Positions 2,323-14,381 of a stretch of DNA of 64,000 nucleotides are shown here, in pieces. The notes under the pieces are model-generated. The model did no database searches. It saw nothing but the letters and a program-made list of their open reading frames with translations, and was not told the DNA's origin. The number at the start of each line of letters is the position of its first letter. Position 1 is the first letter of the stretch. This stretch comes from a virus (lineage: Duplodnaviria; Caudoviricetes), in the IMG/VR virus record IMGVR_UViG_3300037400_004093, positions 2,591-66,590 of that record; one strand, 5' to 3'. The translations under genes and the position numbers were made by a program.

Positions 2323-5300
2323 TTAATATTCCTCGTCATAGTCATCCATCTTAAAGGATGGAGCTTTAACTACATCTTTATCCTTGAGATGATCCCAAGA
2401 AACGATCATGCCAAAACTCTTATCATCCAATCTTCTGGATAACAAGCCGGAAGACTTAGACAAGTCCTCGGCATAAACAATGGTTACCTTATCTCCAGTC
2501 TTAGCTGCATCGATAGTCAACTCCTGGAAGCGACGTTCACATGCAACTAAATCAGTTAATACGGCAATCATGTTTTCACGAGTTAAATTAATCTCGTATG
2601 CTGCAGTTATTACTGCATTTGCATCATCTTCGCTAACGCTGATAACGTCAACAAGATTGCACTCCACATCCTTATGAGTCTCCAAAGGAGAAACATAATT
2701 CTGTAAAGTGCGCTTCTTTCCCTTAAAAGCGTTGTTAAAGATGTGCTTCGCGAACTTTTCGTCTCCTGCTTTTAACTGAATTAAGGCCTCAACAAACTGT
2801 CCGTTAAGAACAGTTACCTTACCTACATCCAGATTAGCATTTTCGATAAAGTTCGCTAATGCAGTTAAACCGACATTGAAGTCAAACTTATTGTTAACCT
2901 TCTTAACTGGCTCCTGACCTTCATTATCAATGTAAACAGCGGTCAATCTCTTGATGCCTTCATCTACAATTTCTAATAAAGTATGGTCAGCGAAAGCTAC
3001 TGCACCATCGCCGTCGAAATCCATACCTGCTAACAGGTTCTTTAAGATCTCAATAGCTGGTACAACCAATAAGCCCTTACTAAAATGCTTTGCAGCATCC
3101 TTAACTAATCTCTTTTCAAGATCAGTTAAATCTTCGCAGTTATCTACCCTTTCTGCATACTCATGATAAGTCACAAGACGAATCTTGATCATTTCGAAGA
3201 TATGCATCTTAGGATATTTAACTGCAAAGAATTTTGAAACTCCTGCTTTTTCGGCCATAGAACATAAGCATTCTACAAAACCGTCATTATTGATTCCAAG
3301 AATTTTAGTTCCGAAATCTGCTGCTGGATCAGTAGTCAGCTTATTGTACCATCCCTTCATAGGAATGTTGACCTTCTTGAGCATGGACAGAATTCCCTTT
3401 AAAACTGTATTAATTGCAGTCTTAAACATAGGACGATAGATATCTGCCACAAAAGTAGGATCAATATTCTGAAGAACCTGACCTACATTTATATTAACAG
3501 CGCCATCATCCTCTGCCTCCACATCATCAGTCTCTTCAACTGATTCAGTTTCGCCGAACATCTCGTCAAAGATTTCAGCTACTGTTTTCTTAGAAGAGAA
3601 ATCTAATGCAGAAGGAATCCTGCCCTCAGGGATTACCCAATTGCCTTCTTCATCCTTAGAAATGACTCTAGCAACTTTCTTCTCAATATTCTTACGAATA
3701 AGAGATTCAAGATATTCCTGAGTCTTCTTTGGATTAAAGATTAAGGCAGTCTGCAACATCTGTGTGCTGGCTTTTGAACCATGAGCCACATCGTGACATT
3801 CATGAGTCATATCCAGCATATTAACACCGCTCTTAGTTTTCAGGTCATAAGTAGCCTTTAAACCATTAAGGTCAGTAAAATACTGCAGAAAACCATTTGG
3901 CAAACGGGTAATATCATACTCTCTGCCAGGGACACAACCAAAACCATGACTTAAAGCCCAATCAGCAGAAGGTACAACAATAACTAATTTCTTAGCATAA
4001 GCACCCTTCTTACCCTTGGACTTCACAGAAACGTTAAACTCATTCTGCTGTTCCTCCGTAATAGAATCACGGAATAATACAACGAACTTGCCACCACGAT
4101 TCTTTAACATAGTTTCGATGTATCCCTTCTTACGGGTAAGTGCCATTACCTTAGACAACCATGGACGACACTGAATGCCGACACCATTAACTGCCCATGG
4201 AGCAATTAAGTACTTACCACCTAACTTTTCAGTAAAAGCTTCAGCGATAAATTCGTCACTGAAAATGGCACGACCATCGAAGGATTCATCTTCTCTAGTC
4301 TTACCATTTAAGAGTGTCTTACCTAACTTCTCCTTACCCATGAAATAGCACACACATTCTAACTCTTTCAGATAGACAGAAGGAGCCTTATATGCACTAA
4401 GTCTGGTAATTAACTGAGCAACATCCTTATCGGTATGATCGTCAGTATCATCCAGATTCATAGTTACGGCACCGAAAGTACACTCATTCCATCTTTCATG
4501 TACCTTCTTAATACCAGCTTCGCCGCCACGATAGCCTGGGAAGCTACCGTCATGTTTCTTAGTCTGGGAAGCAGAGCTGGTTACACCTCCGCAGACTGGA
4601 TCATTATAGATCCAAACATGATTATGAACTTTGTTTTCTGCATTGAATACGATATTTCTATCTACTTTTTCAGCAGTAAATAAGTCCATCAACTTGCCAT
4701 CCAATCCTTCATAGAAAAATGGTGACAAAACTTCTTTATCCTCGGCAAGTCTTACATTTCCTTCGATATGGTATAACTTAGTATAACCATACTCAGGATT
4801 TTCTTCAGTACCTCCTTTCTTATAGCGCAGATGATTAAGAGCTTCTGCATCCTCAATCGTAATATCTACAATTTCAGATGTATATCTCTCAAACAATCTG
4901 GCAGTACCACCGATAGAAGTTGGAACATATGCTGGTGCAATGTCTAACTTATCGGTTTCTATGTTGGATACCTGCATCATTACAGATCTCTCAACCTTAT
5001 CTTTAGTAAAGAGAAGATGAGTGATATAGTAAGATGCAGGCTTAGACATAAGACTAGAGCGTAATCTTTCAACCTGGTCAATCTTCTGAATCAGTTTCAA
5101 GTTCTTCTCAGAAGCAAGTTCGATCCACTTATCTACAATACTAACCTTATTAATAGGGGTAGCAGCACCAATGGAAGTCTTAATATCTACCTGTGTACCA
5201 ACGAATTCAGGAATATTATATACTCTGGTTCCATTAGCTACAGCATAGATCATATGACCGTCAGCGATAACCGCAAAAGCTTCCGCCCCGATGTTGCTAT

Positions 5301-5517
5301 TAACAACATGCTGAGCCTTAACTACATCGATAGCCTTAATAGCCATCTTGTAGTTCGCTAATGCAGCAACAGCAGCTTTACGAGCAGAAGCCTGCTTCTT
5401 TGCGCGCTTAATTAAAACACGCTTCTTAGCAATTTTTGCCTCCGCTTCCTTAGCAGTCTTGATCGCATACTTTACGGATACGATATCGTTAACCTTACCC
5501 CATACTAACTTATTCAT
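2323..5517 (-). CDS. single-subunit two-barrel RNA polymerase, YonO/cellular RdRP-like
   Basis: Catalytic LAGMDFDGD plus QCRP, KYPKMH and TIDAAKTG in the order of the RdRP-family motifs (QIR, RxP, DxDGD, VDxxKTG); GGAGGAGG RBS. Confidence 0.85.
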   Translation of the reverse strand: MNKLVWGKVNDIVSVKYAIKTAKEAEAKIAKKRVLIKRAKKQASARKAAVAALANYKMAIKAIDVVKAQHVVNSNIGAEAFAVIADGHMIYAVANGTRVYNIPEFVGTQVDIKTSIGAATPINKVSIVDKWIELASEKNLKLIQKIDQVERLRSSLMSKPASYYITHLLFTKDKVERSVMMQVSNIETDKLDIAPAYVPTSIGGTARLFERYTSEIVDITIEDAEALNHLRYKKGGTEENPEYGYTKLYHIEGNVRLAEDKEVLSPFFYEGLDGKLMDLFTAEKVDRNIVFNAENKVHNHVWIYNDPVCGGVTSSASQTKKHDGSFPGYRGGEAGIKKVHERWNECTFGAVTMNLDDTDDHTDKDVAQLITRLSAYKAPSVYLKELECVCYFMGKEKLGKTLLNGKTREDESFDGRAIFSDEFIAEAFTEKLGGKYLIAPWAVNGVGIQCRPWLSKVMALTRKKGYIETMLKNRGGKFVVLFRDSITEEQQNEFNVSVKSKGKKGAYAKKLVIVVPSADWALSHGFGCVPGREYDITRLPNGFLQYFTDLNGLKATYDLKTKSGVNMLDMTHECHDVAHGSKASTQMLQTALIFNPKKTQEYLESLIRKNIEKKVARVISKDEEGNWVIPEGRIPSALDFSSKKTVAEIFDEMFGETESVEETDDVEAEDDGAVNINVGQVLQNIDPTFVADIYRPMFKTAINTVLKGILSMLKKVNIPMKGWYNKLTTDPAADFGTKILGINNDGFVECLCSMAEKAGVSKFFAVKYPKMHIFEMIKIRLVTYHEYAERVDNCEDLTDLEKRLVKDAAKHFSKGLLVVPAIEILKNLLAGMDFDGDGAVAFADHTLLEIVDEGIKRLTAVYIDNEGQEPVKKVNNKFDFNVGLTALANFIENANLDVGKVTVLNGQFVEALIQLKAGDEKFAKHIFNNAFKGKKRTLQNYVSPLETHKDVECNLVDVISVSEDDANAVITAAYEINLTRENMIAVLTDLVACERRFQELTIDAAKTGDKVTIVYAEDLSKSSGLLSRRLDDKSFGMIVSWDHLKDKDVVKAPSFKMDDYDEEY

Positions 5518-5573
5518 GATTAATTCCTCCTCCTATTTGACGCATAGGTGCGAAATTTTTAATGATTACACCA

Positions 5574-5602
5574 TTGATTTTCCTTAAATAATATGGTATA
5601 AT
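5574..5602 (+). promoter_or_regulatory. sigmaA-type promoter with extended -10, antisense to 5690-5869
   Basis: TTGATT-17 bp-(TG)TATAAT. Confidence 0.65.
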
Positions 5603-5689
5603 CTTCTTAGCTGGTATTTTATTATAGCCTAAGGAATATGGGCAGATGAATAGCAAGAATTCATCCACCCATACCTTTGAAAGCTAAAC

Positions 5690-5869
5690 TTACTCTTTCG
5701 AGCCAAACTCCACGATGAGAGAGAAGACCTTAGCTATCCTTGCTTCGATCTTAAGTGTTCGCTTTGTTTTCTGCGTTGCTTCTGAAGCCATCTTGACTAC
5801 GATACAGATTACTCCGCATATCGTTACGAGAAACAACAGGACATAAAACGCTACAATTGTCTGGTCCAT
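5690..5869 (-). CDS. 59-aa single-TM membrane peptide, type I toxin-like
   Basis: GGAGG RBS before MDQTIVAFYVLLFLVTICGVICIVVK followed by a basic tail; the track start at 5956 has no RBS. Confidence 0.65.
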   Translation of the reverse strand: MDQTIVAFYVLLFLVTICGVICIVVKMASEATQKTKRTLKIEARIAKVFSLIVEFGSKE

Positions 5870-5938
5870 AAAGGAATACCTCCAGAACTTCGATAGAAAA
5901 TAAACGGCACTAAATTTAAGGTCGATAGCTAGACCGTG

Positions 5939-5983
5939 AAGAGAGAGATTAAACATTGCGCGCTTACTCTCTCTCTTTTTTTT
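5939..5983 (+). terminator. intrinsic terminator closing the antisense transcript
   Basis: AAGAGAGAGA...TCTCTCTCTT stem followed by a T-run. Confidence 0.55.
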
Positions 5984-5995
5984 GCACCAAAAAAG

Positions 5996-6058
5996 CAGTT
6001 ATTAACGGTATTTCAACGGCTTCTTTATCCATTAACAGGGGAAAGGTGATACAACCTA
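5996..6058 (-). ncRNA. unidentified conserved intergenic motif, copy 2
   Basis: Near-copy of 2232-2298, about 19 nt after the stop codon of 6078-6851. Confidence 0.5.
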
Positions 6059-6077
6059 TAGCAGAACAGAAACAGAT

Positions 6078-6851
6078 TTAAATGGAATCTGTTTCGACCG
6101 CATTATTTAATAATGCATCGAGATCGTCCATTTCATCTGCATCTACAGCATGAGTCTTTTCAAACTCAGCTGCTTTTGCTTCCTCAACAGTGTCATAGAC
6201 ACCGGTGCTCATACGAGCACGTTTTGGAGCCTTCTTAGCTGTCTCCTTCTTAGGAGACTTTTTTGCTTCCTCCTTTTTTGGTTCAGGAGCTGGGGTGGAA
6301 GCTTCCCCCTCTAATTTCTGGAGAATCATATTCATACGATCCTCCAGAGTATTAATCTTAATACCCTGTTCTTTTACCTCCTTTCTTAATTCATTATTTT
6401 CATTTTCTAACTTAGAGCATTTGCTCTGCCATGTTGCAGCAGTCCTCTTCTGAGTTTCCACCTCCTTCTTCAAAGCTTCCTCTCTCTTCTGGGCTTCTAC
6501 CCGGAAAGTCCCGTAATTCTGTTTTACGATAGCCAGCTTCTTCTCCATTTCAGGATCTGGCTTAATCACCTCCTTAATGACTTCCTTTTCTACAGGAACT
6601 TCCTTAATCACCTCCTTTTCGATAACTGTGTTACGAGGAGTAATAGTACGGGTGTACTCCTCTAAACCAGCCTCCTTTCTTCTCTTATTTGCCTCTTCGT
6701 GCAGGGTAACTGCCTTATCCATTAAGCAGTCACCTGCGTTATAGCAGACATTTGCGCTCTTCTCGCAGACTACGGAGACCTGCTCCTTGAGAGCACCTCC
6801 GATAATTACACCTACGTTAAAAGCAGACTTAAAAGAATCAAAATTAAACAT
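6078..6851 (-). CDS. coiled-coil protein with Lys/Pro-rich tail
   Basis: 257 aa, AAAGGAAG RBS, heptad-rich centre, RMSTGV motif and C-terminal DSI. Confidence 0.7.
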   Translation of the reverse strand: MFNFDSFKSAFNVGVIIGGALKEQVSVVCEKSANVCYNAGDCLMDKAVTLHEEANKRRKEAGLEEYTRTITPRNTVIEKEVIKEVPVEKEVIKEVIKPDPEMEKKLAIVKQNYGTFRVEAQKREEALKKEVETQKRTAATWQSKCSKLENENNELRKEVKEQGIKINTLEDRMNMILQKLEGEASTPAPEPKKEEAKKSPKKETAKKAPKRARMSTGVYDTVEEAKAAEFEKTHAVDADEMDDLDALLNNAVETDSI

Positions 6852-6976
6852 AGTAATACTTCCTTTCTGAGCACGACGGCTCTTAAAAAATTTAAAATAA
6901 ACTTATAAACTGCTGTCGATGTATTATAATACCCATCTCAGGTGTTTAACGTGAGTTAACAGACCCCACGAATGCT

Positions 6977-7084
6977 CTGGACTTGTGACCAGCTTTATCT
7001 TATATTTTTCCTTCCTATATAATAAGGAAGAAAGATAAAGGTGCATTAATATCTTTTTTTAATCTTTAAAGATACCACTCTGCA
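6977..7084 (-). ncRNA. twister ribozyme A (P5-type permutation)
   Basis: Minus strand reads UGCAGAGUG-P1 hairpin-U^AAUGCAC-P3 hairpin-CUGGUCACAAGUCCAG; pseudoknot GUG/CAC; predicted cut between 7048 and 7047. Confidence 0.85.
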
Positions 7085-7086
7085 TA

Positions 7087-7116
7087 TTGACAAGCATATA
7101 AAGGATATGTTAAAAT
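7087..7116 (+). promoter_or_regulatory. sigmaA-type promoter, antisense to 7180-7335
   Basis: TTGACA-18 bp-(TG)TAAAAT. Confidence 0.6.
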
Positions 7117-7179
7117 AAAACAAGGAAAAGTGGGGCAACACCCGACAAGTGTTACCCCTGGATACCAACGCCGAGACGT

Positions 7180-7335
7180 TTAGAGAGCTAGTATTTGTCT
7201 CAAAATCTCAACTATAGCTGTGGCTGCAGCCGTTTTCAGGATTTCCCAGACACCAGAGGATATAAGAGATACCAGCTCCCATATCTTGTCTCCAATGCTT
7301 TCTTTTCTTGCATGCCTTCCGGCTTTCCTCGACAT
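7180..7335 (-). CDS. 51-aa amphipathic/hydrophobic peptide, type I toxin-like
   Basis: GAAAGGAA RBS before MSRKAGRHARKESIGDKIWELVSLISSGVWEILKTAAATAIVEILRQILAL; GGGGTAACAC/GTGTTGCCCC hairpin downstream. Confidence 0.6.
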   Translation of the reverse strand: MSRKAGRHARKESIGDKIWELVSLISSGVWEILKTAAATAIVEILRQILAL

Positions 7336-7410
7336 AGAGGTTATTCCTTTCTTGTGGGAAGAATAAGCAAAATGCCAGTGGTCCACAACCAACTGGCACG
7401 TCTCCGGCAT

Positions 7411-7444
7411 AAATAACCCTTATCTAACAAGGGTTATTTTTTTT
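7411..7444 (+). terminator. intrinsic terminator
   Basis: AAATAACCCTT/AAGGGTTATTT perfect stem plus T-run. Confidence 0.6.
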
Positions 7445-7461
7445 GTTTTTTAAAAATATCA

Positions 7462-7490
7462 TTGATTATGGTTTAAAACAATGATATAAT
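7462..7490 (+). promoter_or_regulatory. sigmaA-type promoter inside an inverted repeat, antisense to 7562-7783
   Basis: TTGATT-17 bp-(TG)TATAAT; ATATCATTG...CAATGATAT inverted repeat. Confidence 0.65.
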
Positions 7491-7561
7491 AAAATACAGA
7501 ATCAGAGAAACGGAGCCGGGAACTCCGCTCTCCTATCTGTGTACTGGGATCAACTCGGCAA

Positions 7562-7783
7562 CTACCACTGCTCAAGATCCGTATGTTGAACAGCAGCGAG
7601 CTTCTCATCTGTCAGCAAGTTATAGGCTTCTAACCCTAATACGTTACGGTCAATGGAGATCTGTCTATCCCGACAAAACACGTACATAGCTTCTTTCAGA
7701 CTTCTCGCCTCAAGTACATCTGAGTCGTATTGGCCATTGACATAACCGCCGACCCAGTATACTTCATATGTCTTCTTCTCCAA
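7562..7783 (-). CDS. small hypothetical protein, paralog of 9205-9387
   Basis: 73 aa, GGAAG RBS, KKxYEVxW and A-x-S-x-x-E/D-A patterns shared with 9205-9387. Confidence 0.65.
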   Translation of the reverse strand: MEKKTYEVYWVGGYVNGQYDSDVLEARSLKEAMYVFCRDRQISIDRNVLGLEAYNLLTDEKLAAVQHTDLEQW

Positions 7784-8062
7784 TGAGCCACTTCCATTCT
7801 TGACGAAATCCAGTGCGCATCACCTCCTTTCATGGTCGTAAAACGCGGAGAAGAGACGGTTAACAATAAGTGCTTAACTAAGAGCCCCAATGCTCCCATA
7901 GGTAAGTACTTATTGTTTTTTATTCCCCGTCATGCCGATAGGACAGCACATAATTAATATTCTGCTTAAAATAAATTAAATAAGCATTATTAAGGGCACT
8001 ACCAAGATATTTCTAATCCTGATAGTGCCCTTCCTTAATAATTATTTAACTTTTTATTCAGT

Positions 8063-8362
8063 TTAGAAGTTCAATACCTCCTTTAAAGTAGGTGCGGTAT
8101 CCTTCATGATCTTCACTTTTATTTTCTGGCCCACCTTTAATGAGCCAATTTCTACATTATTATTTTCCAAGGTAAAATCCTTGGATAAATAATAATCATA
8201 GTTTTCAATCCCTCCTTCCTCTGCCGCTCTTACAATGAGTGTTTCCAGGCATTCCCCCGGATGAACCACCATCTCGGTGGTTGCTACACACTCATAATGT
8301 GTATAGCAATTAAAGATTACAACAACTAATGCAACTACAACAATAATAATATTCTTAAACAT
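8063..8362 (-). CDS. membrane-anchored LysM-like protein (YneA-like architecture)
   Basis: N-terminal hydrophobic helix, then VVHPGECLETLI...NNNVEIGSLKVGQKIKV; AGGAGG RBS. Confidence 0.55.
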   Translation of the reverse strand: MFKNIIIVVVALVVVIFNCYTHYECVATTEMVVHPGECLETLIVRAAEEGGIENYDYYLSKDFTLENNNVEIGSLKVGQKIKVKIMKDTAPTLKEVLNF

Positions 8363-8393
8363 GATAATTTCCTCCTAAAAATTGTATTAAATA

Positions 8394-8423
8394 TTGACAA
8401 ATGGAGGAATCTCATGTTATAAT
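8394..8423 (+). promoter_or_regulatory. sigmaA-type promoter for a short RNA ending at a terminator at 8480-8511
   Basis: TTGACA-18 bp-(TG)TATAAT; AAGAGAGAGAA/TTCTCTCTCTT plus T-run about 60 nt downstream. Confidence 0.6.
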
Positions 8424-8644
8424 AAACCCACGTTTTGATGGATTTATGTTTAACATGACTAATTCCTCCATTAAACGATAAGAGAGAGAACCAGAACTTC
8501 TCTCTCTTTTTATTATTTAAATTTTTCCGAAAGCCTATATCGGAGTCAACGCCTCTCAAAAATAAATATCATATAGCGATTTTAATATGATATGAAGGTT
8601 TACAGTCTATACGCCTACAACTTTGTCAGCTATTTATTATGCAA

Positions 8645-8839
8645 TTATTTTTCAATAACTACATAGTAGCGACCGTCATCAAGACGGCCCTGTGCTACAA
8701 TTTTGCCACCACCACCAGCCTGACGCATTGCATCAAGCTTTGCAGCTCTGTATCCCATAGCTGCATTATGATTCTGAGCAGAACCATATCCTGTATACTG
8801 AGCAGCTAATGCCATAACTAAAACAACTACCTTTTTCAT
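8645..8839 (-). CDS. small secreted or exported protein
   Basis: GGGAGG RBS before MKKVVVLVMALAAQ (signal-like), Gly-rich; 64 aa. Confidence 0.6.
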   Translation of the reverse strand: MKKVVVLVMALAAQYTGYGSAQNHNAAMGYRAAKLDAMRQAGGGGKIVAQGRLDDGRYYVVIEK

Positions 8840-9000
8840 GATAATACCTCCCAGCATTTAACCTCATACTAGCATTTTCTAGTCTTATTGGACCGACCTC
8901 ATGATAAAGTCGATTAACAGTACGTCAGCTTTGATTAATGAGACTGCTTACCTGTCTCTTAACAACGGGTTACTGTTTAGGGCCCCGCAATGTACCTTTT

Positions 9001-9077
9001 CCGAGACTTTGGACTCGGCACTTCTATATTTTTTTAGAAGCGGTGCATTAATATCTTATTTAAGATACCCATCTGCA
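9001..9077 (-). ncRNA. twister ribozyme C (P5-type permutation)
   Basis: UGCAGAUGG-P1-U^AAUGCAC-P3-CCGAGUCCAAAGUCUCGG; P4 stem covaries relative to copies A and B; predicted cut 9050/9049. Confidence 0.8.
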
Positions 9078-9087
9078 AAAAATATCA

Positions 9088-9116
9088 TTGAACATAAGTC
9101 TAAAACATGATATAAT
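9088..9116 (+). promoter_or_regulatory. sigmaA-type promoter, antisense to 9205-9387
   Basis: TTGAAC-17 bp-(TG)TATAAT. Confidence 0.65.
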
Positions 9117-9204
9117 AAAAAATAACAGATGCGCCAAGTGTGCTGTTGACACCCGGCGCTTTTGTCTCGGGCTATCTGTCATAGCCCAGAGTAACAGTCT
9201 GCTA

Positions 9205-9387
9205 TCAGTTGTCGCTGATTTCAGTTGCAGACATATTACGTATCAAGTCGCCGCGAAACAGCTTTATGTTTGACTTTATCTTTCGATAAGCGTCGTTCAC
9301 ACTGTTAGCGGTGACTATTTTGTTGTAACTCTTGACGGAATCGTATTTGTCGACTACGATCCATCTGACTTCGTACTTTTTAGCCAT
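9205..9387 (-). CDS. small hypothetical protein, paralog of 7562-7783
   Basis: 60 aa, GGGAGG RBS, MAKKYEVRW. Confidence 0.65.
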   Translation of the reverse strand: MAKKYEVRWIVVDKYDSVKSYNKIVTANSVNDAYRKIKSNIKLFRGDLIRNMSATEISDN

Positions 9388-9501
9388 AGCTCTTGCCTCC
9401 CTAATCCATAATAGTTGATGGAGAGTTAGCGTATATGCCTAATAAAATACTTAGTTAACATTACAACTATTTCTTAACGTGTTTCAACGAATGCTTTTTA
9501 T

Positions 9502-9573
9502 CTGGACTTTGGACCAGCTACTTTTTTATTAAGTAGGTGCATTAATACTCCTATATAGAAGTACCCATCTGCA
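9502..9573 (-). ncRNA. twister ribozyme B (P5-type permutation)
   Basis: UGCAGAUGG-P1-U^AAUGCAC-P3-CUGGUCCAAAGUCCAG; pseudoknot UGG/CCA; predicted cut 9544/9543. Confidence 0.8.
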
Positions 9574-9682
9574 AAGTAGATGAATATATAAAATAGAGAA
9601 TGCAGATAAATAATCCACATTCTCTATACTAGCCATACATGTATCTTCGGCTACATGTAGGTATCGTATCTATATTTATTTC

Positions 9683-9711
9683 TTGAAACATACTATATCC
9701 TATGATATAAT
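9683..9711 (+). promoter_or_regulatory. sigmaA-type promoter for 9756-10073
   Basis: TTGAAA-17 bp-(TG)TATAAT. Confidence 0.65.
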
Positions 9712-9755
9712 TAAATTATCAACATAATATGAAAACAAGAAAGGATGATATAGAT

Positions 9756-10073
9756 ATGACGAAAACTAATTCTACCAGGATTTCTCCGCCGCCACCTCCT
9801 CCTAATCTTACTCAAGAACAGTTAGAAGAAGCAATTGGCAGAACTAGCTTTATTCCAGTCAAAGAAACTGAAGAGTCAGACGAAGAATATGCTCGTCGTC
9901 TCTCAGGCTGGAGAAATAAAAGAAAAACCGTAAATTACCGTTTAAAAGTTCTTTCAAGGAAAATAGAATACATCTTTTGGTCTTTAGCCTACAAAGCATT
10001 AGACAACTATGATGGATACTATAATCGCAAAGAACCACCTAAACATTCTGGCAATCCACGGTTTATCTTTTAA
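9756..10073 (+). CDS. hypothetical basic protein with a poly-Pro stretch
   Basis: GAAAGGA RBS before the ATG at 9756; has its own promoter; convergent with 10070-10567. Confidence 0.65.
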   Translation: MTKTNSTRISPPPPPPNLTQEQLEEAIGRTSFIPVKETEESDEEYARRLSGWRNKRKTVNYRLKVLSRKIEYIFWSLAYKALDNYDGYYNRKEPPKHSGNPRFIF

Positions 10074-10567: not shown

Positions 10568-10744
10568 ACTAATACACCTCCTTTCATACTTTTATTTGCT
10601 CTGTATTAGCATTACAATCTATATCTTGTTTTTATAAAGAATCTTAATTCTATATCAAGGCTTTTTATAAAGATAAGATACATTTCTAGTCTCTTTTTTT
10701 ACATGGTGAACCTCTCGAATTTCCATGTACACCATGGAGAAGCA

Positions 10745-10969
10745 TTAGAAATACCTCTCCATGGTGCAAAATAAAACTCCATTAGGGAGCGTATACTTCC
10801 TGTAATGGTCCTCCTTGAAGGAGGATACTAAAAGAGAGCCATTTCTGACTCTCTCATCTAATTTTAATAACATTTCCTTTTCTACGGTCTTGCCGTTGAT
10901 CTTCTCAACGGTGATCTTCTTAGTGGTAATGTTCTTATAGTTCATCATAGTAATCAACCTCCCAGTCAA
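10745..10969 (-). CDS. small hypothetical protein
   Basis: 74-aa ORF, GGGAGG near the start, hairpins downstream; exact start uncertain. Confidence 0.5.
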   Translation of the reverse strand: MTGRLITMMNYKNITTKKITVEKINGKTVEKEMLLKLDERVRNGSLLVSSFKEDHYRKYTLPNGVLFCTMERYF

Positions 10970-11059
10970 TTAAGCCTCACTGATTTCTTCAGTCTATTGG
11001 CTCGCATACAAATACTCCTCTGGTATATCCAGATAAAAAAGTATTCTATGAAATGTATG

Positions 11060-11470
11060 CTTCACAGGATTCCCCTAAAAAAGAAGAACACGTTTTACAT
11101 CAGGTGTGATCTGCTGATGTTTTCCTAAACTTTCGCTACGCTCCCATTTTCGATGGAACGTTTTTAACGGAAAAGTTTTCGGAAAATTTTCGTCAGTTAT
11201 CCCGTTCGATAATGAGATTTTGAGACAACTGACCCCGGGGGTAGCTTTTTCCCCAAAGACTTCCCCATAAGAGTACCTGGTCCCCTTCCAAAATTTTTTC
11301 ATTTTTCATTTCCCCTATAGGATTTTTCCCATTCTTATAAAAAAATTGATTTTGTCAACTATCATTTTCTTAAAAAAGTCTTAAATCCCTAATTTTTATA
11401 TAATTTTTTATGATTTTCGATTTCTATATAAAAACTTGATTTTATCAACCATAAAAAAATAAGTCTTTAG
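11060..11470. other. non-coding strand-switch region with a TTCCCC motif array
   Basis: Gene orientation flips here; repeated TTCCC(C), CCCCGGGGG palindrome, A/T tracts. Confidence 0.5.
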
Positions 11471-11543
11471 CAGGCAGGATTTTCATCGTAAATGTAGAAT
11501 ATAGAAAAATATAAGGATAAAAAGAATGAAGTGAAAAAAGAAA

Positions 11544-11843
11544 ATGTATAACAATCGAAACGATATTTTCTTCGATGATAATATAATTGATATCGATAAT
11601 GACATATCTGATATCTTGAATAAGTATAGAGACAAGGATAATAATGACAGAAATAAAGAAACAAATAGATATAATAGCAACGAAGATAGCGAGATAAATA
11701 AATTAAGAAGAGAGAATGAGAGATTAAAGAAAGAAAACGAAGAATTAAGAAAAGAGATTGATATTATAAATAAGAATACAGAGGATTTGGAATCAGATAT
11801 TAAGAAGATAAGTAATGCAGTATATAATATAATTAATAAATAA
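11544..11843 (+). CDS. Asn/Asp-rich coiled-coil hypothetical protein
   Basis: 99-aa ORF with a heptad stretch LRRENERLKKENEELRKE. Confidence 0.55.
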   Translation: MYNNRNDIFFDDNIIDIDNDISDILNKYRDKDNNDRNKETNRYNSNEDSEINKLRRENERLKKENEELRKEIDIINKNTEDLESDIKKISNAVYNIINK

Positions 11844-11864
11844 AGGGGAAAAGGGGAATTTAAA

Positions 11865-12863
11865 ATGGCAGATGCAGAAGAATATTATGGTTGTTATGGA
11901 GAAGATTTATTTGACGCGATGTTAGATGAAGAAGATATGGCAGCATGGAAAGAAGCCAGAGAAGAAGAGGAATATGAAGAAGAACATGCGCCTCAAGAAT
12001 TCAATAAATTCAAGGAAGAATATAATAAATATTTTTGCGACAAAAATTTTAATAGTAAGATATGTGCTGACGATATAAGAACTTTAGTTAAAAATATAGA
12101 AAATATATCTGAGTTATTATTAAATATAGAATATAATATTATAGAGGAATGTGATGAGAAAGGAAATCAAATATCTTATCCTGATTTAAATAGCGATGAT
12201 AATATAGAGATAGATGAAAAGATTTATGATGTAAAAGTAAGAGACAACACAAAGAAAGCCGCTAAATTATTAATGAATATTATCGCGATGTATACGTTTA
12301 GTACAGATAAAGCTAGGCGTAGAATAGTGAGATATTTAAAAAGCGTATATTATAATAATAAAGCAAAAGAAGATTTAAAAGACGTTTATCATATGCGCCG
12401 TAAAATTTTCTACACAAATGAATGCAATAATCCGCAACAGTTTGTGTATGATTTTATTGTAAAGAATAAAATTAAAGGAAGCATATTGTATGTAGCTGAT
12501 GATGAAGAAATCATGCATTTTATTTATAAGGAGTTTAATAAACCAGCTTTAAAATACAAAATAAATTGTGAATATATGAGTAGATATAAAGTTGGCACTT
12601 CAAGTTTTGAAGATATAAAAAAAGATAATTTAATATTATGCAATCCTTCACAATTAACTTTAGATGATAAATATGATTATATATTTATGGATATTTCAAA
12701 TGAATATACAGAGCTTGAAAAAGTAAATCCTTATAGAGTATTTACGGCTTTGAATATGTTTAAAAAGAATATACATATAATTGATTTTACAGAAGAACAA
12801 GACATATTAGCAAATTTGTTTGAATCTTATAAGATTGAGGATATAGATAACAAATATAAATAA
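11865..12863 (+). CDS. hypothetical protein
   Basis: 332-aa ORF, AAGGGG RBS, acidic N-terminus. Confidence 0.7.
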   Translation: MADAEEYYGCYGEDLFDAMLDEEDMAAWKEAREEEEYEEEHAPQEFNKFKEEYNKYFCDKNFNSKICADDIRTLVKNIENISELLLNIEYNIIEECDEKGNQISYPDLNSDDNIEIDEKIYDVKVRDNTKKAAKLLMNIIAMYTFSTDKARRRIVRYLKSVYYNNKAKEDLKDVYHMRRKIFYTNECNNPQQFVYDFIVKNKIKGSILYVADDEEIMHFIYKEFNKPALKYKINCEYMSRYKVGTSSFEDIKKDNLILCNPSQLTLDDKYDYIFMDISNEYTELEKVNPYRVFTALNMFKKNIHIIDFTEEQDILANLFESYKIEDIDNKYK

Positions 12864-12937
12864 AATATTGAATTAACATACGATAAAAGAGAGTCCCTCT
12901 TAGGTAATATAATTATTATCGAGGAGGGATTTTTATT

Positions 12938-13204
12938 ATGTCCGTAATATTTATAAATAAGACTCAAGAAATAGAAGGTGCATTTACCTTTAATGTTCTT
13001 GTCGACGAAAGTATTAAGCCTAATACTATAAAAATTGAAGGCATATTGGAGACAAAAGAATATTTGGACGAGATAAAAGAGATAGAAAGCGTTGGGTATA
13101 AATTAACCGGAGTAAGAATAATCGGAGAATCTTATGGTTCAGAAGATGATAAAATACAATATGCTTTTAGAGCCAAAAATTATGAAGTCTTTAGAGATAA
13201 GTAA
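12938..13204 (+). CDS. hypothetical protein
   Basis: 88 aa, GAGGAGG RBS. Confidence 0.7.
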   Translation: MSVIFINKTQEIEGAFTFNVLVDESIKPNTIKIEGILETKEYLDEIKEIESVGYKLTGVRIIGESYGSEDDKIQYAFRAKNYEVFRDK

Positions 13205-13234
13205 TATATATAATTGAGAGGAGGCAGATAAGAT

Positions 13235-13930
13235 ATGGAAGAAGATGAGAATCTTGAAGAAGATTTATTAGAGGAAGAAGAAATAGAAAGAGACGATGAA
13301 TCTGATAACAATATGATTGTCGCGAAAAGAGAAGAATTTGAATTAGCGATGAAAAGTAATGGCGGCAATTGGGGGTATTCAAAGAGAGGAATAGAAGCTA
13401 AAAGAGCGGCTATGACTATGCTTTCTACTAAAACTGGTATGTATGCGAGAATACCTTTAATATGTAAAGGAAAAGCTTGTCCTTACGCTGAAAGCTGTGA
13501 ATTAATTCCATATGATTTAACCCCTGTCGGAGAACCTTGTCCTAAAGAAACTTCTAAGATAGAAATGAATACGGCAGGATATTGTCAGGATTTAGATTAT
13601 GAGCATGCTAGTTTTACGGATAAAATGATGTTAAATGATTTAGTTGGATATGACATTATGTTGGATAGATGTAGATCATTAATGGCTAAAGAAGGTACTC
13701 CAGTTATAGAGATAGTAGCAGGAGTCGCAGAAAACGGAGAAGAAATAAGGCAGCCGGCAATATCTAAAGCTTTAGAAGCTTATGAAAAAATAGTGAAGAA
13801 AAAGAATGAAACATATCAGCTTATGATGATGACGAGAAAAGATAAGAAGAAGAATGGAGATGACGAAGATGGTGGTCTTCAGGATATTCTTAATAACGTT
13901 ATTAACGCAGCTGATTTAGAAGAGGAATGA
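13235..13930 (+). CDS. putative terminase small subunit (Cys cluster)
   Basis: CKGKACPYAESC...EPCP Zn-like cluster, helical C-terminus, first conserved-looking gene of the late cluster; positional inference only. Confidence 0.4.
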   Translation: MEEDENLEEDLLEEEEIERDDESDNNMIVAKREEFELAMKSNGGNWGYSKRGIEAKRAAMTMLSTKTGMYARIPLICKGKACPYAESCELIPYDLTPVGEPCPKETSKIEMNTAGYCQDLDYEHASFTDKMMLNDLVGYDIMLDRCRSLMAKEGTPVIEIVAGVAENGEEIRQPAISKALEAYEKIVKKKNETYQLMMMTRKDKKKNGDDEDGGLQDILNNVINAADLEEE

Positions 13931-13940
13931 TTATCATATT

Positions 13941-14381
13941 ATGTTTAAAGGATTTAGGAAGTTTTTCAACGATGCTTCATCTGCCACAGAAAATATTCTT
14001 GCCTCTAACAAGGATGCAACAAACGTACAGGTAATATCGGATGCAATAGAGTCAGCCGTAAATAAAAGAATCTCCGAATCTCCAATGTTAAACGTAAGGA
14101 TGCATGGTTTATGTACAGAAGAAAACATGGCATTAAGAACTAAAGTCAATAATCCTGAGAAATATACTCTTACAAACGAAGAGGAAAAGTCTTGGAATGA
14201 TTTGGTTAATCAAGCGAATGGAAAAGAATTAGGTTCATTAGAAAAATCGGCTTCTTTACTATTTCATAGAAATGGAGATATTGCACCATTGAGAGTAGCT
14301 AGTGTAGCAGGATTAGGAGCATTAAGTGTAGGAGCAGTAGGAGTTGGAGCATATAAAGCAGTAGATGCATTAAGTGACTGA
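13941..14381 (+). CDS. protein with a Gly/Ala-rich hydrophobic C-terminal helix
   Basis: VASVAGLGALSVGAVGVGAYKAV. Confidence 0.7.
   Translation: MFKGFRKFFNDASSATENILASNKDATNVQVISDAIESAVNKRISESPMLNVRMHGLCTEENMALRTKVNNPEKYTLTNEEEKSWNDLVNQANGKELGSLEKSASLLFHRNGDIAPLRVASVAGLGALSVGAVGVGAYKAVDALSD

Follow-up and report, generated by a model that had tools for sequence, protein, structure and literature searches.

A conserved array of host-type promoters and terminators, laid out as predicted antisense RNA units, faces the small leftward genes of an uncultured gut phage

The window analysed in this work is a 64,000-nucleotide (nt) stretch comprising bases 2591–66590 of a single 66,590-bp phage contig (IMG/VR record IMGVR_UViG_3300037400_004093), which represents an uncultured gut phage from a group without a cultured relative. 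Its genes lie on the minus strand to the left of position ~9400 and run rightward from 9729. In the leftward arm, upstream of the start of a gene encoding a 1064-amino-acid (aa) putative RNA polymerase, a series of small minus-strand genes (g1 to g6) is faced by five plus-strand promoters, each followed by a plus-strand terminator; the resulting units are designated C1 to C5, and their coordinates are collected in Table 1.

A consensus scan and our own scan for the promoter class TTGnnn, 17/18 bp, TGnTAnAAT returned only nine sites in the whole 66.6-kb genome, six of them within 5574–9711 and all six on the plus strand. First-order Markov simulations of the segment 5500–9750 (3000 runs) gave a chance expectation of 0.086 sites for both strands together, with a simulated maximum of 2. 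The five plus-strand promoters named in the original prediction were all recovered as members of this class; they match the consensus hexamers at 10–12 of 12 positions and carry the TG extension in every case (5/5), and initiation by the host holoenzyme is predicted at each. P+7462 and P+9088 have a 43-nt repeat in common (7452 and 9078). As had been proposed, four of the promoters each flank the 3' end of a small minus-strand gene, the respective stops being at 5690, 7180, 7562 and 9205. The fifth, P+8394, is found 5' of the 99-aa gene, across whose leader it fires. All the strong host-type promoters of the left 12 kb but one point in the same direction.

Each of the five promoters has a plus-strand intrinsic terminator 45–430 nt downstream, mostly one-way, with energies of −13 to −23.5 kcal/mol and at least six T in the next 8 bases. 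The original prediction had credited terminators to four promoters; those at 5939, 7411 and 8480 were borne out, the hairpin after 7462, which it had described as weaker, is actually the most stable, and a further terminator was found after 9088, where it had listed none. No unit contains a plus-strand open reading frame (ORF) of at least 8 codons with a Shine–Dalgarno match of at least 5/6, in agreement with the earlier statement that no credible plus-strand ORF follows the promoters. Gaps between units reach 1.1 kb. Another unit of like construction lies to the left of the window, where a TTGACA-17-TATAAT promoter at −781 reads across g0, the gene of a 64-aa membrane peptide, towards a plus-strand terminator at −370 to −337. 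Several of the small genes carry minus-strand terminators of their own (7158, 7540–7496, 9182–9122 and −646). The U-runs of these terminators reach into the −10 elements and start sites of the plus-strand promoters, with the consequence that a sense unit and its antisense unit occupy nearly the same stretch. The units are laid out as convergent antisense RNA genes of a sigma-A-type polymerase, which is the geometry originally proposed, and on balance we consider it probable that they are short non-coding antisense RNA genes read by the host RNA polymerase and overlapping small leftward genes.

Table 1. Coordinates of the promoters, terminators, predicted RNAs, genes and RNA elements discussed in the text. 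KD19, Kyte–Doolittle 19-residue maximum; rc, reverse complement.
Feature	Position	Strand	Description
P+5574	5574–5602	+	TTGATT-17-TGgTATAAT; 57 nt upstream of the 1064-aa gene start, pointing away from that gene
P+7087	7087–7116	+	TTGACA-18-TGtTAAAAT
P+7462	7462–7490	+	TTGATT-17-TGaTATAAT; A-rich upstream tract
P+8394	8394–8423	+	TTGACA-18-TGtTATAAT; 12/12 hexamer matches
P+9088	9088–9116	+	TTGAAC-17-TGaTATAAT
P+9683	9683–9711	+	same class; ordinary sense promoter of the 114-aa gene 9729–10073
C1 terminator	5939–5985	+	one-way, then T8
C2 terminator	7411–7446	+	
C3 terminator	hairpin 7862–7917, then TTTTTTATT (T6), to 7925	+	−23.5 kcal/mol, most stable of the set
C4 terminator	8480–8516	+	
C5 terminator	hairpin 9131–9159, to 9167	+	two-way hairpin, 3' of P+9088
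C1 RNA, predicted	5609–5985	+	~377 nt; antisense to the whole of g1; ends deduced from promoter and terminator
C2 RNA, predicted	7123–7446	+	~324 nt; antisense to g2
C3 RNA, predicted	7498–7925	+	~428 nt; antisense to g3
C4 RNA, predicted	8430–8516	+	~87 nt; antisense to the 99-aa gene leader and a 14-codon mini-ORF
C5 RNA, predicted	9123–9167	+	~45 nt; read-through would be antisense to g6
g0	left of window		64 aa; one strongly hydrophobic helix, KD19 3.15
g1	5690–5869	−	59 aa; one N-terminal membrane helix, charged tail; GGAGG ribosome-binding site 9 nt upstream
g2	7180–7335	−	51 aa; basic N-terminus, amphipathic C-terminus; own minus-strand terminator 7158–7132
g3	7562–7783	−	73-aa ORF, TTG start; minus-strand terminator 7540–7496
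g4		−	99 aa
g5		−	64 aa
g6	9205–9387	−	60 aa
1064-aa protein gene	2323–5517	−	followed by a 475-aa gene in the window
Twister-P5 match	6977–7084	−	33.2 bits (gathering score 37.6); 3 nt from P+7087
Twister-like element	8984–9077	−	15 bits only; 11 nt from P+9088
Twister	9502–9573		41.5 bits, above the gathering score of 37.6
GCCGTTGAAA sites	5996–6058; 2232–2298; ~−330; L016 (rc) 4075–4100		
Second-lineage antisense unit	terminator 6085–6112	+ (terminator)	over the g4 homologue
Second-lineage antisense unit			C1 unit with gene deleted; g1 start codon lost in the L016 lineage
Second-lineage antisense unit	L016rc 6884		P+9088 homologue
Second-lineage antisense unit		+ (terminator)	terminator within an 80-aa minus-strand coding sequence

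Five metagenome contigs (L001–L005) encode relatives of the 1064-aa protein at 91–96% identity. The intergenic blocks bearing the promoters are nearly identical across these relatives, in which the 257-aa and 99-aa genes have diverged (synonymous divergence 0.23–0.40). In all five, the body of g1 (5691–5843) is swapped for 22 nt, leaving an 8-codon ORF, with P+5574 and the terminator retained; the C1 hairpin and its T-run are also retained in L002, L004 and L016, a member of a second lineage described below, despite changes in the stem. L005 has wholly lost g0 and has kept its TTGACA-17-TATAAT promoter, with 0 of 12 hexamer positions changed against 4 of 17 in the spacer, which argues for selection on the promoter hexamers; the plus-strand terminator is kept as well. 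L001 carries a nonsense change (W19*) in g2, and the losses of g1 and g2 are of a kind to be expected if the cargo is dispensable or toxic. Among the relatives, g2, g3 and g6 show low synonymous divergence, which agrees with a recently exchanged block (6860–8040) and was not taken as a sign of RNA-level constraint. In unit C4, the loop of the plus-strand terminator (8490–8497) is inverted in L002, L004 and L005, with the stem and T-run retained.

The persistence of empty units would also suit small-RNA genes in their own right, with trans targets in the host or the phage; the minus-strand genes would then be optional cargo and the antisense overlap secondary, a reading we regard as rather unlikely. 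It draws on the empty C1 kept in the five relatives and the L016 lineage, on the deleted form found in an RNA library and on the promoter hexamers of the gene-less g0 unit of L005. It also draws on two sequence copies: the mini-ORF start region in C4 (8454–8469) copies the start region of the 1064-aa gene (5515–5530) at 15/16 positions, and in L029, from a third lineage, the antisense-unit RNA holds a 23/24 copy of the phage's own polymerase start region (9868–9895 versus 9984–10010), with an 11-codon mini-ORF. Nevertheless, in L005 the copy in C4 and the polymerase start region show no co-variation, and the predicted duplex energies of C4 against the 1064-aa start are no better than those against other ribosome-binding sites; a trans target of C4 was accordingly rejected, the energies against all start regions being unspecific. 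Moreover, the units have no common sequence or fold, and the empty ones may be recent deletions that have not yet decayed.

Promoter conservation next to homologous genes extends beyond the close relatives, as the array recurs in a second lineage and single units in a third. The second lineage (L016–L025) has the g5/g6 block in common with the window, and its polymerase gene is split and 25% identical; in L016, the homologue consists of 717-aa and 605-aa genes (10673–14183). Viewed in the same orientation, this lineage has nine strong TG-extended promoters on the plus strand and 0 on the minus strand, of which five drive small plus-strand genes or the rightward arm and four belong to antisense units with their own plus-strand terminators (Table 1). 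The counterpart of P+5574 keeps the −10 hexamer and the TG, with TTGCAT as its −35 hexamer, and the counterpart of P+9683 (L016rc 10182) drives a 55-aa homologue. The polymerase gene of the third lineage (L029/L030), at 36% identity, is directly preceded by two TGcTATAAT promoters that face in the antisense direction and have a terminator each. No antisense array was found in L006, a distant relative at 39% identity, and a single site in L007 may be due to chance, overlapping a repeated start region. In other variants, namely RNA contig X1 record 2 and L016 (rc) 6123–6634, the C1 terminator (5983) is joined straight to g5 (8673), and the cassettes have therefore been reshuffled between phages. 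The original interpretation is thus supported in part: the suggested modularity stands, the units being modular, under selection and shuffled between phage variants.

The placement of the promoters raises the possibility that they act by transcription itself, with head-on host polymerases or open complexes blocking or partitioning leftward transcription, including that of the 1064-aa gene and the twister-led messages. The promoters sit exactly at unit junctions, right after minus-strand terminators and 3–11 nt before twister-type leaders, and the window and L029/L030 both have an antisense-facing promoter immediately 5' of the polymerase gene, as L007 perhaps does too, with the caveat given above. 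A pure roadblock would have no need of dedicated plus-strand terminators at 45–430 nt that are kept across lineages, and we find this explanation quite improbable.

RNA-library contigs covering three of the units were found in four runs from three studies of pig and bovine gut metatranscriptomes, all unstranded and compared at a likeness threshold of 88%. The C1 contigs extend from 5625/5633 to 5889/5937 (4 runs, 3 studies), those of C2 from 7141/7177 to 7405/7419 (3 runs, with one contig beginning at 7004) and those of C3 from 7504/7511 to 7851/7879, at depths of 124, 101 and 45. The g1-deleted form of C1 is also present as a contig, and cover at 8673–9078 is weak. Conserved DNA beside the units (5400–5620, 7420–7503, 7900–8040, 8380–8640 and 9100–9800) had no contig cover. 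In two runs, the depth of C3 exceeds that of neighbouring C2 by a factor of 18–23; uniform DNA carry-over does not fit this difference, and the cover argues for discrete RNAs. Plus-strand RNA is favoured because both contig boundaries of C1 and C3 coincide with a canonical promoter and terminator on the plus strand only; no sigma-A-like minus-strand promoter was found at the right ends of these two units.

As the contigs are unstranded, the abundant RNAs could instead be ordinary minus-strand mRNAs of the small genes, which have good ribosome-binding sites and their own terminators, the plus-strand promoters then being look-alikes little used in the real host. The overlap of A/T-rich terminator runs with the plus-strand −10 regions would agree with such resemblance. 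We nonetheless consider this very unlikely in view of the six near-consensus TG-extended sites against 0.086 expected, the hexamer-specific conservation, the matched plus-strand terminators and the lack of sigma-A-like minus-strand promoters at the right ends of C1 and C3.

According to the antisense reading, the host sigma-A RNA polymerase would start at each of the five promoters, and the unit's own intrinsic terminator would close each transcript. The RNAs would run head-on through g1, g2, g3 and the 99-aa gene leader or would enter the g6 terminator, and would be perfect cis-antisense partners of the opposing messages. Their most likely action would be pairing with the sense RNA, whereby translation would be blocked and the duplex marked for RNase III, with head-on transcriptional interference adding to the effect, so that the overlapped phage genes would stay low while the host polymerase dominates. 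The elements of an antisense gene with its own promoter and terminator over a toxin-like message are present and conserved, and RNA is present in the form of unstranded contigs.

Several observations weigh against this interpretation. The contigs carry no strand, and the minus-strand terminators adjoin the plus-strand starts, so that the left ends of minus-strand mRNAs would almost coincide with those of plus-strand RNAs. The C2 boundaries would equally result from the terminator at 7158 together with a weak promoter on the minus strand, TTGTTT-17-TGaTATTTT. Contig ends can also be assembly breaks at hairpins or strain junctions. The 88% limit may hide the diverged 257-aa gene, g4 and g5, where missing cover is not silence, and short RNAs cannot form contigs, for which reason missing cover in general, including that at 9100–9800, is not evidence of silence. 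The unit at 8394 covers a leader rather than a gene, C5 may stop after ~45 nt, g3 and g6 are soluble and not toxin-like, and homologues of g1 outside its own cluster are absent from the protein atlas and GenBank phages. The use of sigma-A is a prediction from the promoter consensus and the GGAGG ribosome-binding sites. Finally, since units that have lost their gene persist, there must be more to their function than cis-silencing.

Two broader roles can be envisaged for the array. The promoters could act at the DNA level, for instance in genome entry assisted by transcription or in R-loop replication priming, or could drive unconventional plus-strand micro-ORFs. Their co-direction in the left 12 kb would suit this idea; a transcription relay is impossible, however, because the terminators stop transcripts at 45–430 nt and the gaps reach 1.1 kb, while plus-strand ORFs with a ribosome-binding site are absent from the units, and we judge both variants exceedingly unlikely. 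The second proposal, which we hold to be improbable, is that the host polymerase is left with a few small genes and the antisense array, all other genes of both arms depending on the phage's putative polymerase, and that the array forms an RNA-only lock in a repressor-free carrier state. If true, it would explain why RNA libraries cover the units and not the conserved DNA beside them. A whole-genome scan found no strong host-type promoter before the 1064-aa gene or before the rightward structural arm of 55 kb. The carrier or lysogenic state suggested originally finds no support: the proteins scanned, most of the plus-strand arm lying outside the scan, yielded neither an integrase or repressor domain nor any other lysogeny gene, and no prophage copy was confirmed by one profile-pattern scan of reference genomes. 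Besides the antisense units, strong host-type promoters (−1753, −1700 and 9683) serve only genes of 221, 98 and 114 aa.

Regarding the products of the small genes, the size and hydrophobicity expected of type I toxins (membrane peptides of ~60 aa or fewer) are seen in g0 and g1 (KD19 of 2.96 for g1), not in g3 or g6, and g2 is borderline (KD19 1.36). The ratio of non-synonymous to synonymous changes (pN/pS) of g2 against the relatives is ~0.1–0.3. Searches of g1–g6 against Pfam and PHROGs gave no family match, none of the small proteins significantly matches a toxin family, and none has homology to known toxins such as Fst, TxpA, BsrG, YonT, Hok, Ldr and others. BLASTP gave no alignment between g0 and g1, so that the layout is the sole basis for regarding them as paralogues. 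The g3 product resembles that of g6 weakly (E 0.007), and across the five relatives compared, 0–1 of 3–4 changes in g3 are synonymous. This gene has a weak ribosome-binding site and nearly all its substitutions are non-synonymous; a strong GGAGG with an ATG at 7820 opens another frame, which is broken at differing places among the relatives (region 7562–7820). Judged from these patterns, g3 may not be a normal protein gene, and its coding status is uncertain.

No sigma-A-like minus-strand promoter was found for the small genes. In a motif search, only GCCGTTGAAA recurred upstream of minus-strand genes; it precedes four to six of them in two lineages, inside a longer conserved block, and this motif might serve as an RNA element or be recognised as a promoter by a non-host polymerase. 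A two-way promoter was also considered, the minus strand of the 43-nt repeat reading TTGTTT or ATGTTT, 17 bp, TGaTATTTT, and was set aside as possible only for g2. A minus-strand promoter at 9088 cannot serve the twister-like message because its start would fall in the first helix of the element, and an IMG/VR pattern scan for the palindromic promoter returned only unrelated ordinary promoters. Two promoters had been said to abut twisters: twister-type elements do lie 3 and 11 nt from them, but both fall below the gathering score (Table 1), which makes this detail weaker than originally stated. To the right of the first twister, two lineages with polymerase genes of only 25% identity have a pair of hairpins (9594–9662) in nearly 100% identical form. 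The first resembles a minus-strand terminator and precedes the initial gene of the leftward arm; the second has a C(UUCG)G loop on the plus strand and shows a compensatory AC/GT to GT/AC exchange.

As for the 1064-aa protein, its homologues contain an invariant LAGMDFDGD motif. Its label as a YonO-like RNA polymerase is unconfirmed, with no match in Pfam, PHROGs, PDB sequences or GenBank phages; as a single IMG/VR query, it likewise returned no match, and neither did one profile-pattern scan of reference genomes. The rightward arm contains six Rfam group I intron matches.

Phage morons are autonomous inserts composed of a promoter, a gene and a terminator. The units described here resemble them as compact elements gained, lost and shuffled between related phages; in morons, the promoter and terminator serve the enclosed gene, which here is encoded on the strand opposite to both. 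A layout like that of type I toxin–antitoxin systems is seen in the g0 and g1 units, and perhaps in that of g2, which would encode candidate toxins by analogy. The likeness of the first two consists in a one-helix peptide, an RNA gene in convergent orientation and a peptide gene that is often naturally lost. The closest parallels are the phage-borne pairs bsrG/SR4 and yonT/SR6 of Bacillus phage SPbeta and those of Clostridioides difficile phiCD630-1, in which the gene of a small membrane peptide converges on a short antisense RNA equipped with a strong promoter and a terminator of its own (PMC3834814, PMC5848175, PMC6563280, PMC3531473). By the same analogy, the RNA duplex would here be removed by RNase III. 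In contrast to those pairs, which overlap over ~100–120 nt of the 3' end, the RNA here would span the whole gene and its ribosome-binding site, and the units also cover soluble proteins and a leader, stand several in a row and show no likeness to toxin families.

The remaining units resemble the lambda OOP RNA, which is short, made by the host polymerase from its own promoter to its own terminator and convergent with a small early gene; this RNA is antisense to cII and lowers cII expression (PMC5869508). Lambda has one such unit, covering only the 3' end of cII (PMC5869508), whereas five to seven would be present here and more in the second lineage. In the virulent Pseudomonas phages PAK_P3 and PAK_P4, early phage antisense RNAs are likewise reported to be directed against genes needed at another time; those were reportedly detected by RNA-seq over structural genes (PMC5563952), unlike the compact promoter-to-terminator cassettes around single small genes found here. 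In the phage studied here, the strong host-type promoters of the small-gene arm all face against the genes, and this pattern recurs where the polymerase genes are only 25–36% identical, so that the array would be a distinct way for a phage to apportion tasks to host and to phage transcription. Textbook cases exist of single phage antisense RNAs and of type I pairs; a conserved array of five to seven full-length units would exceed them.

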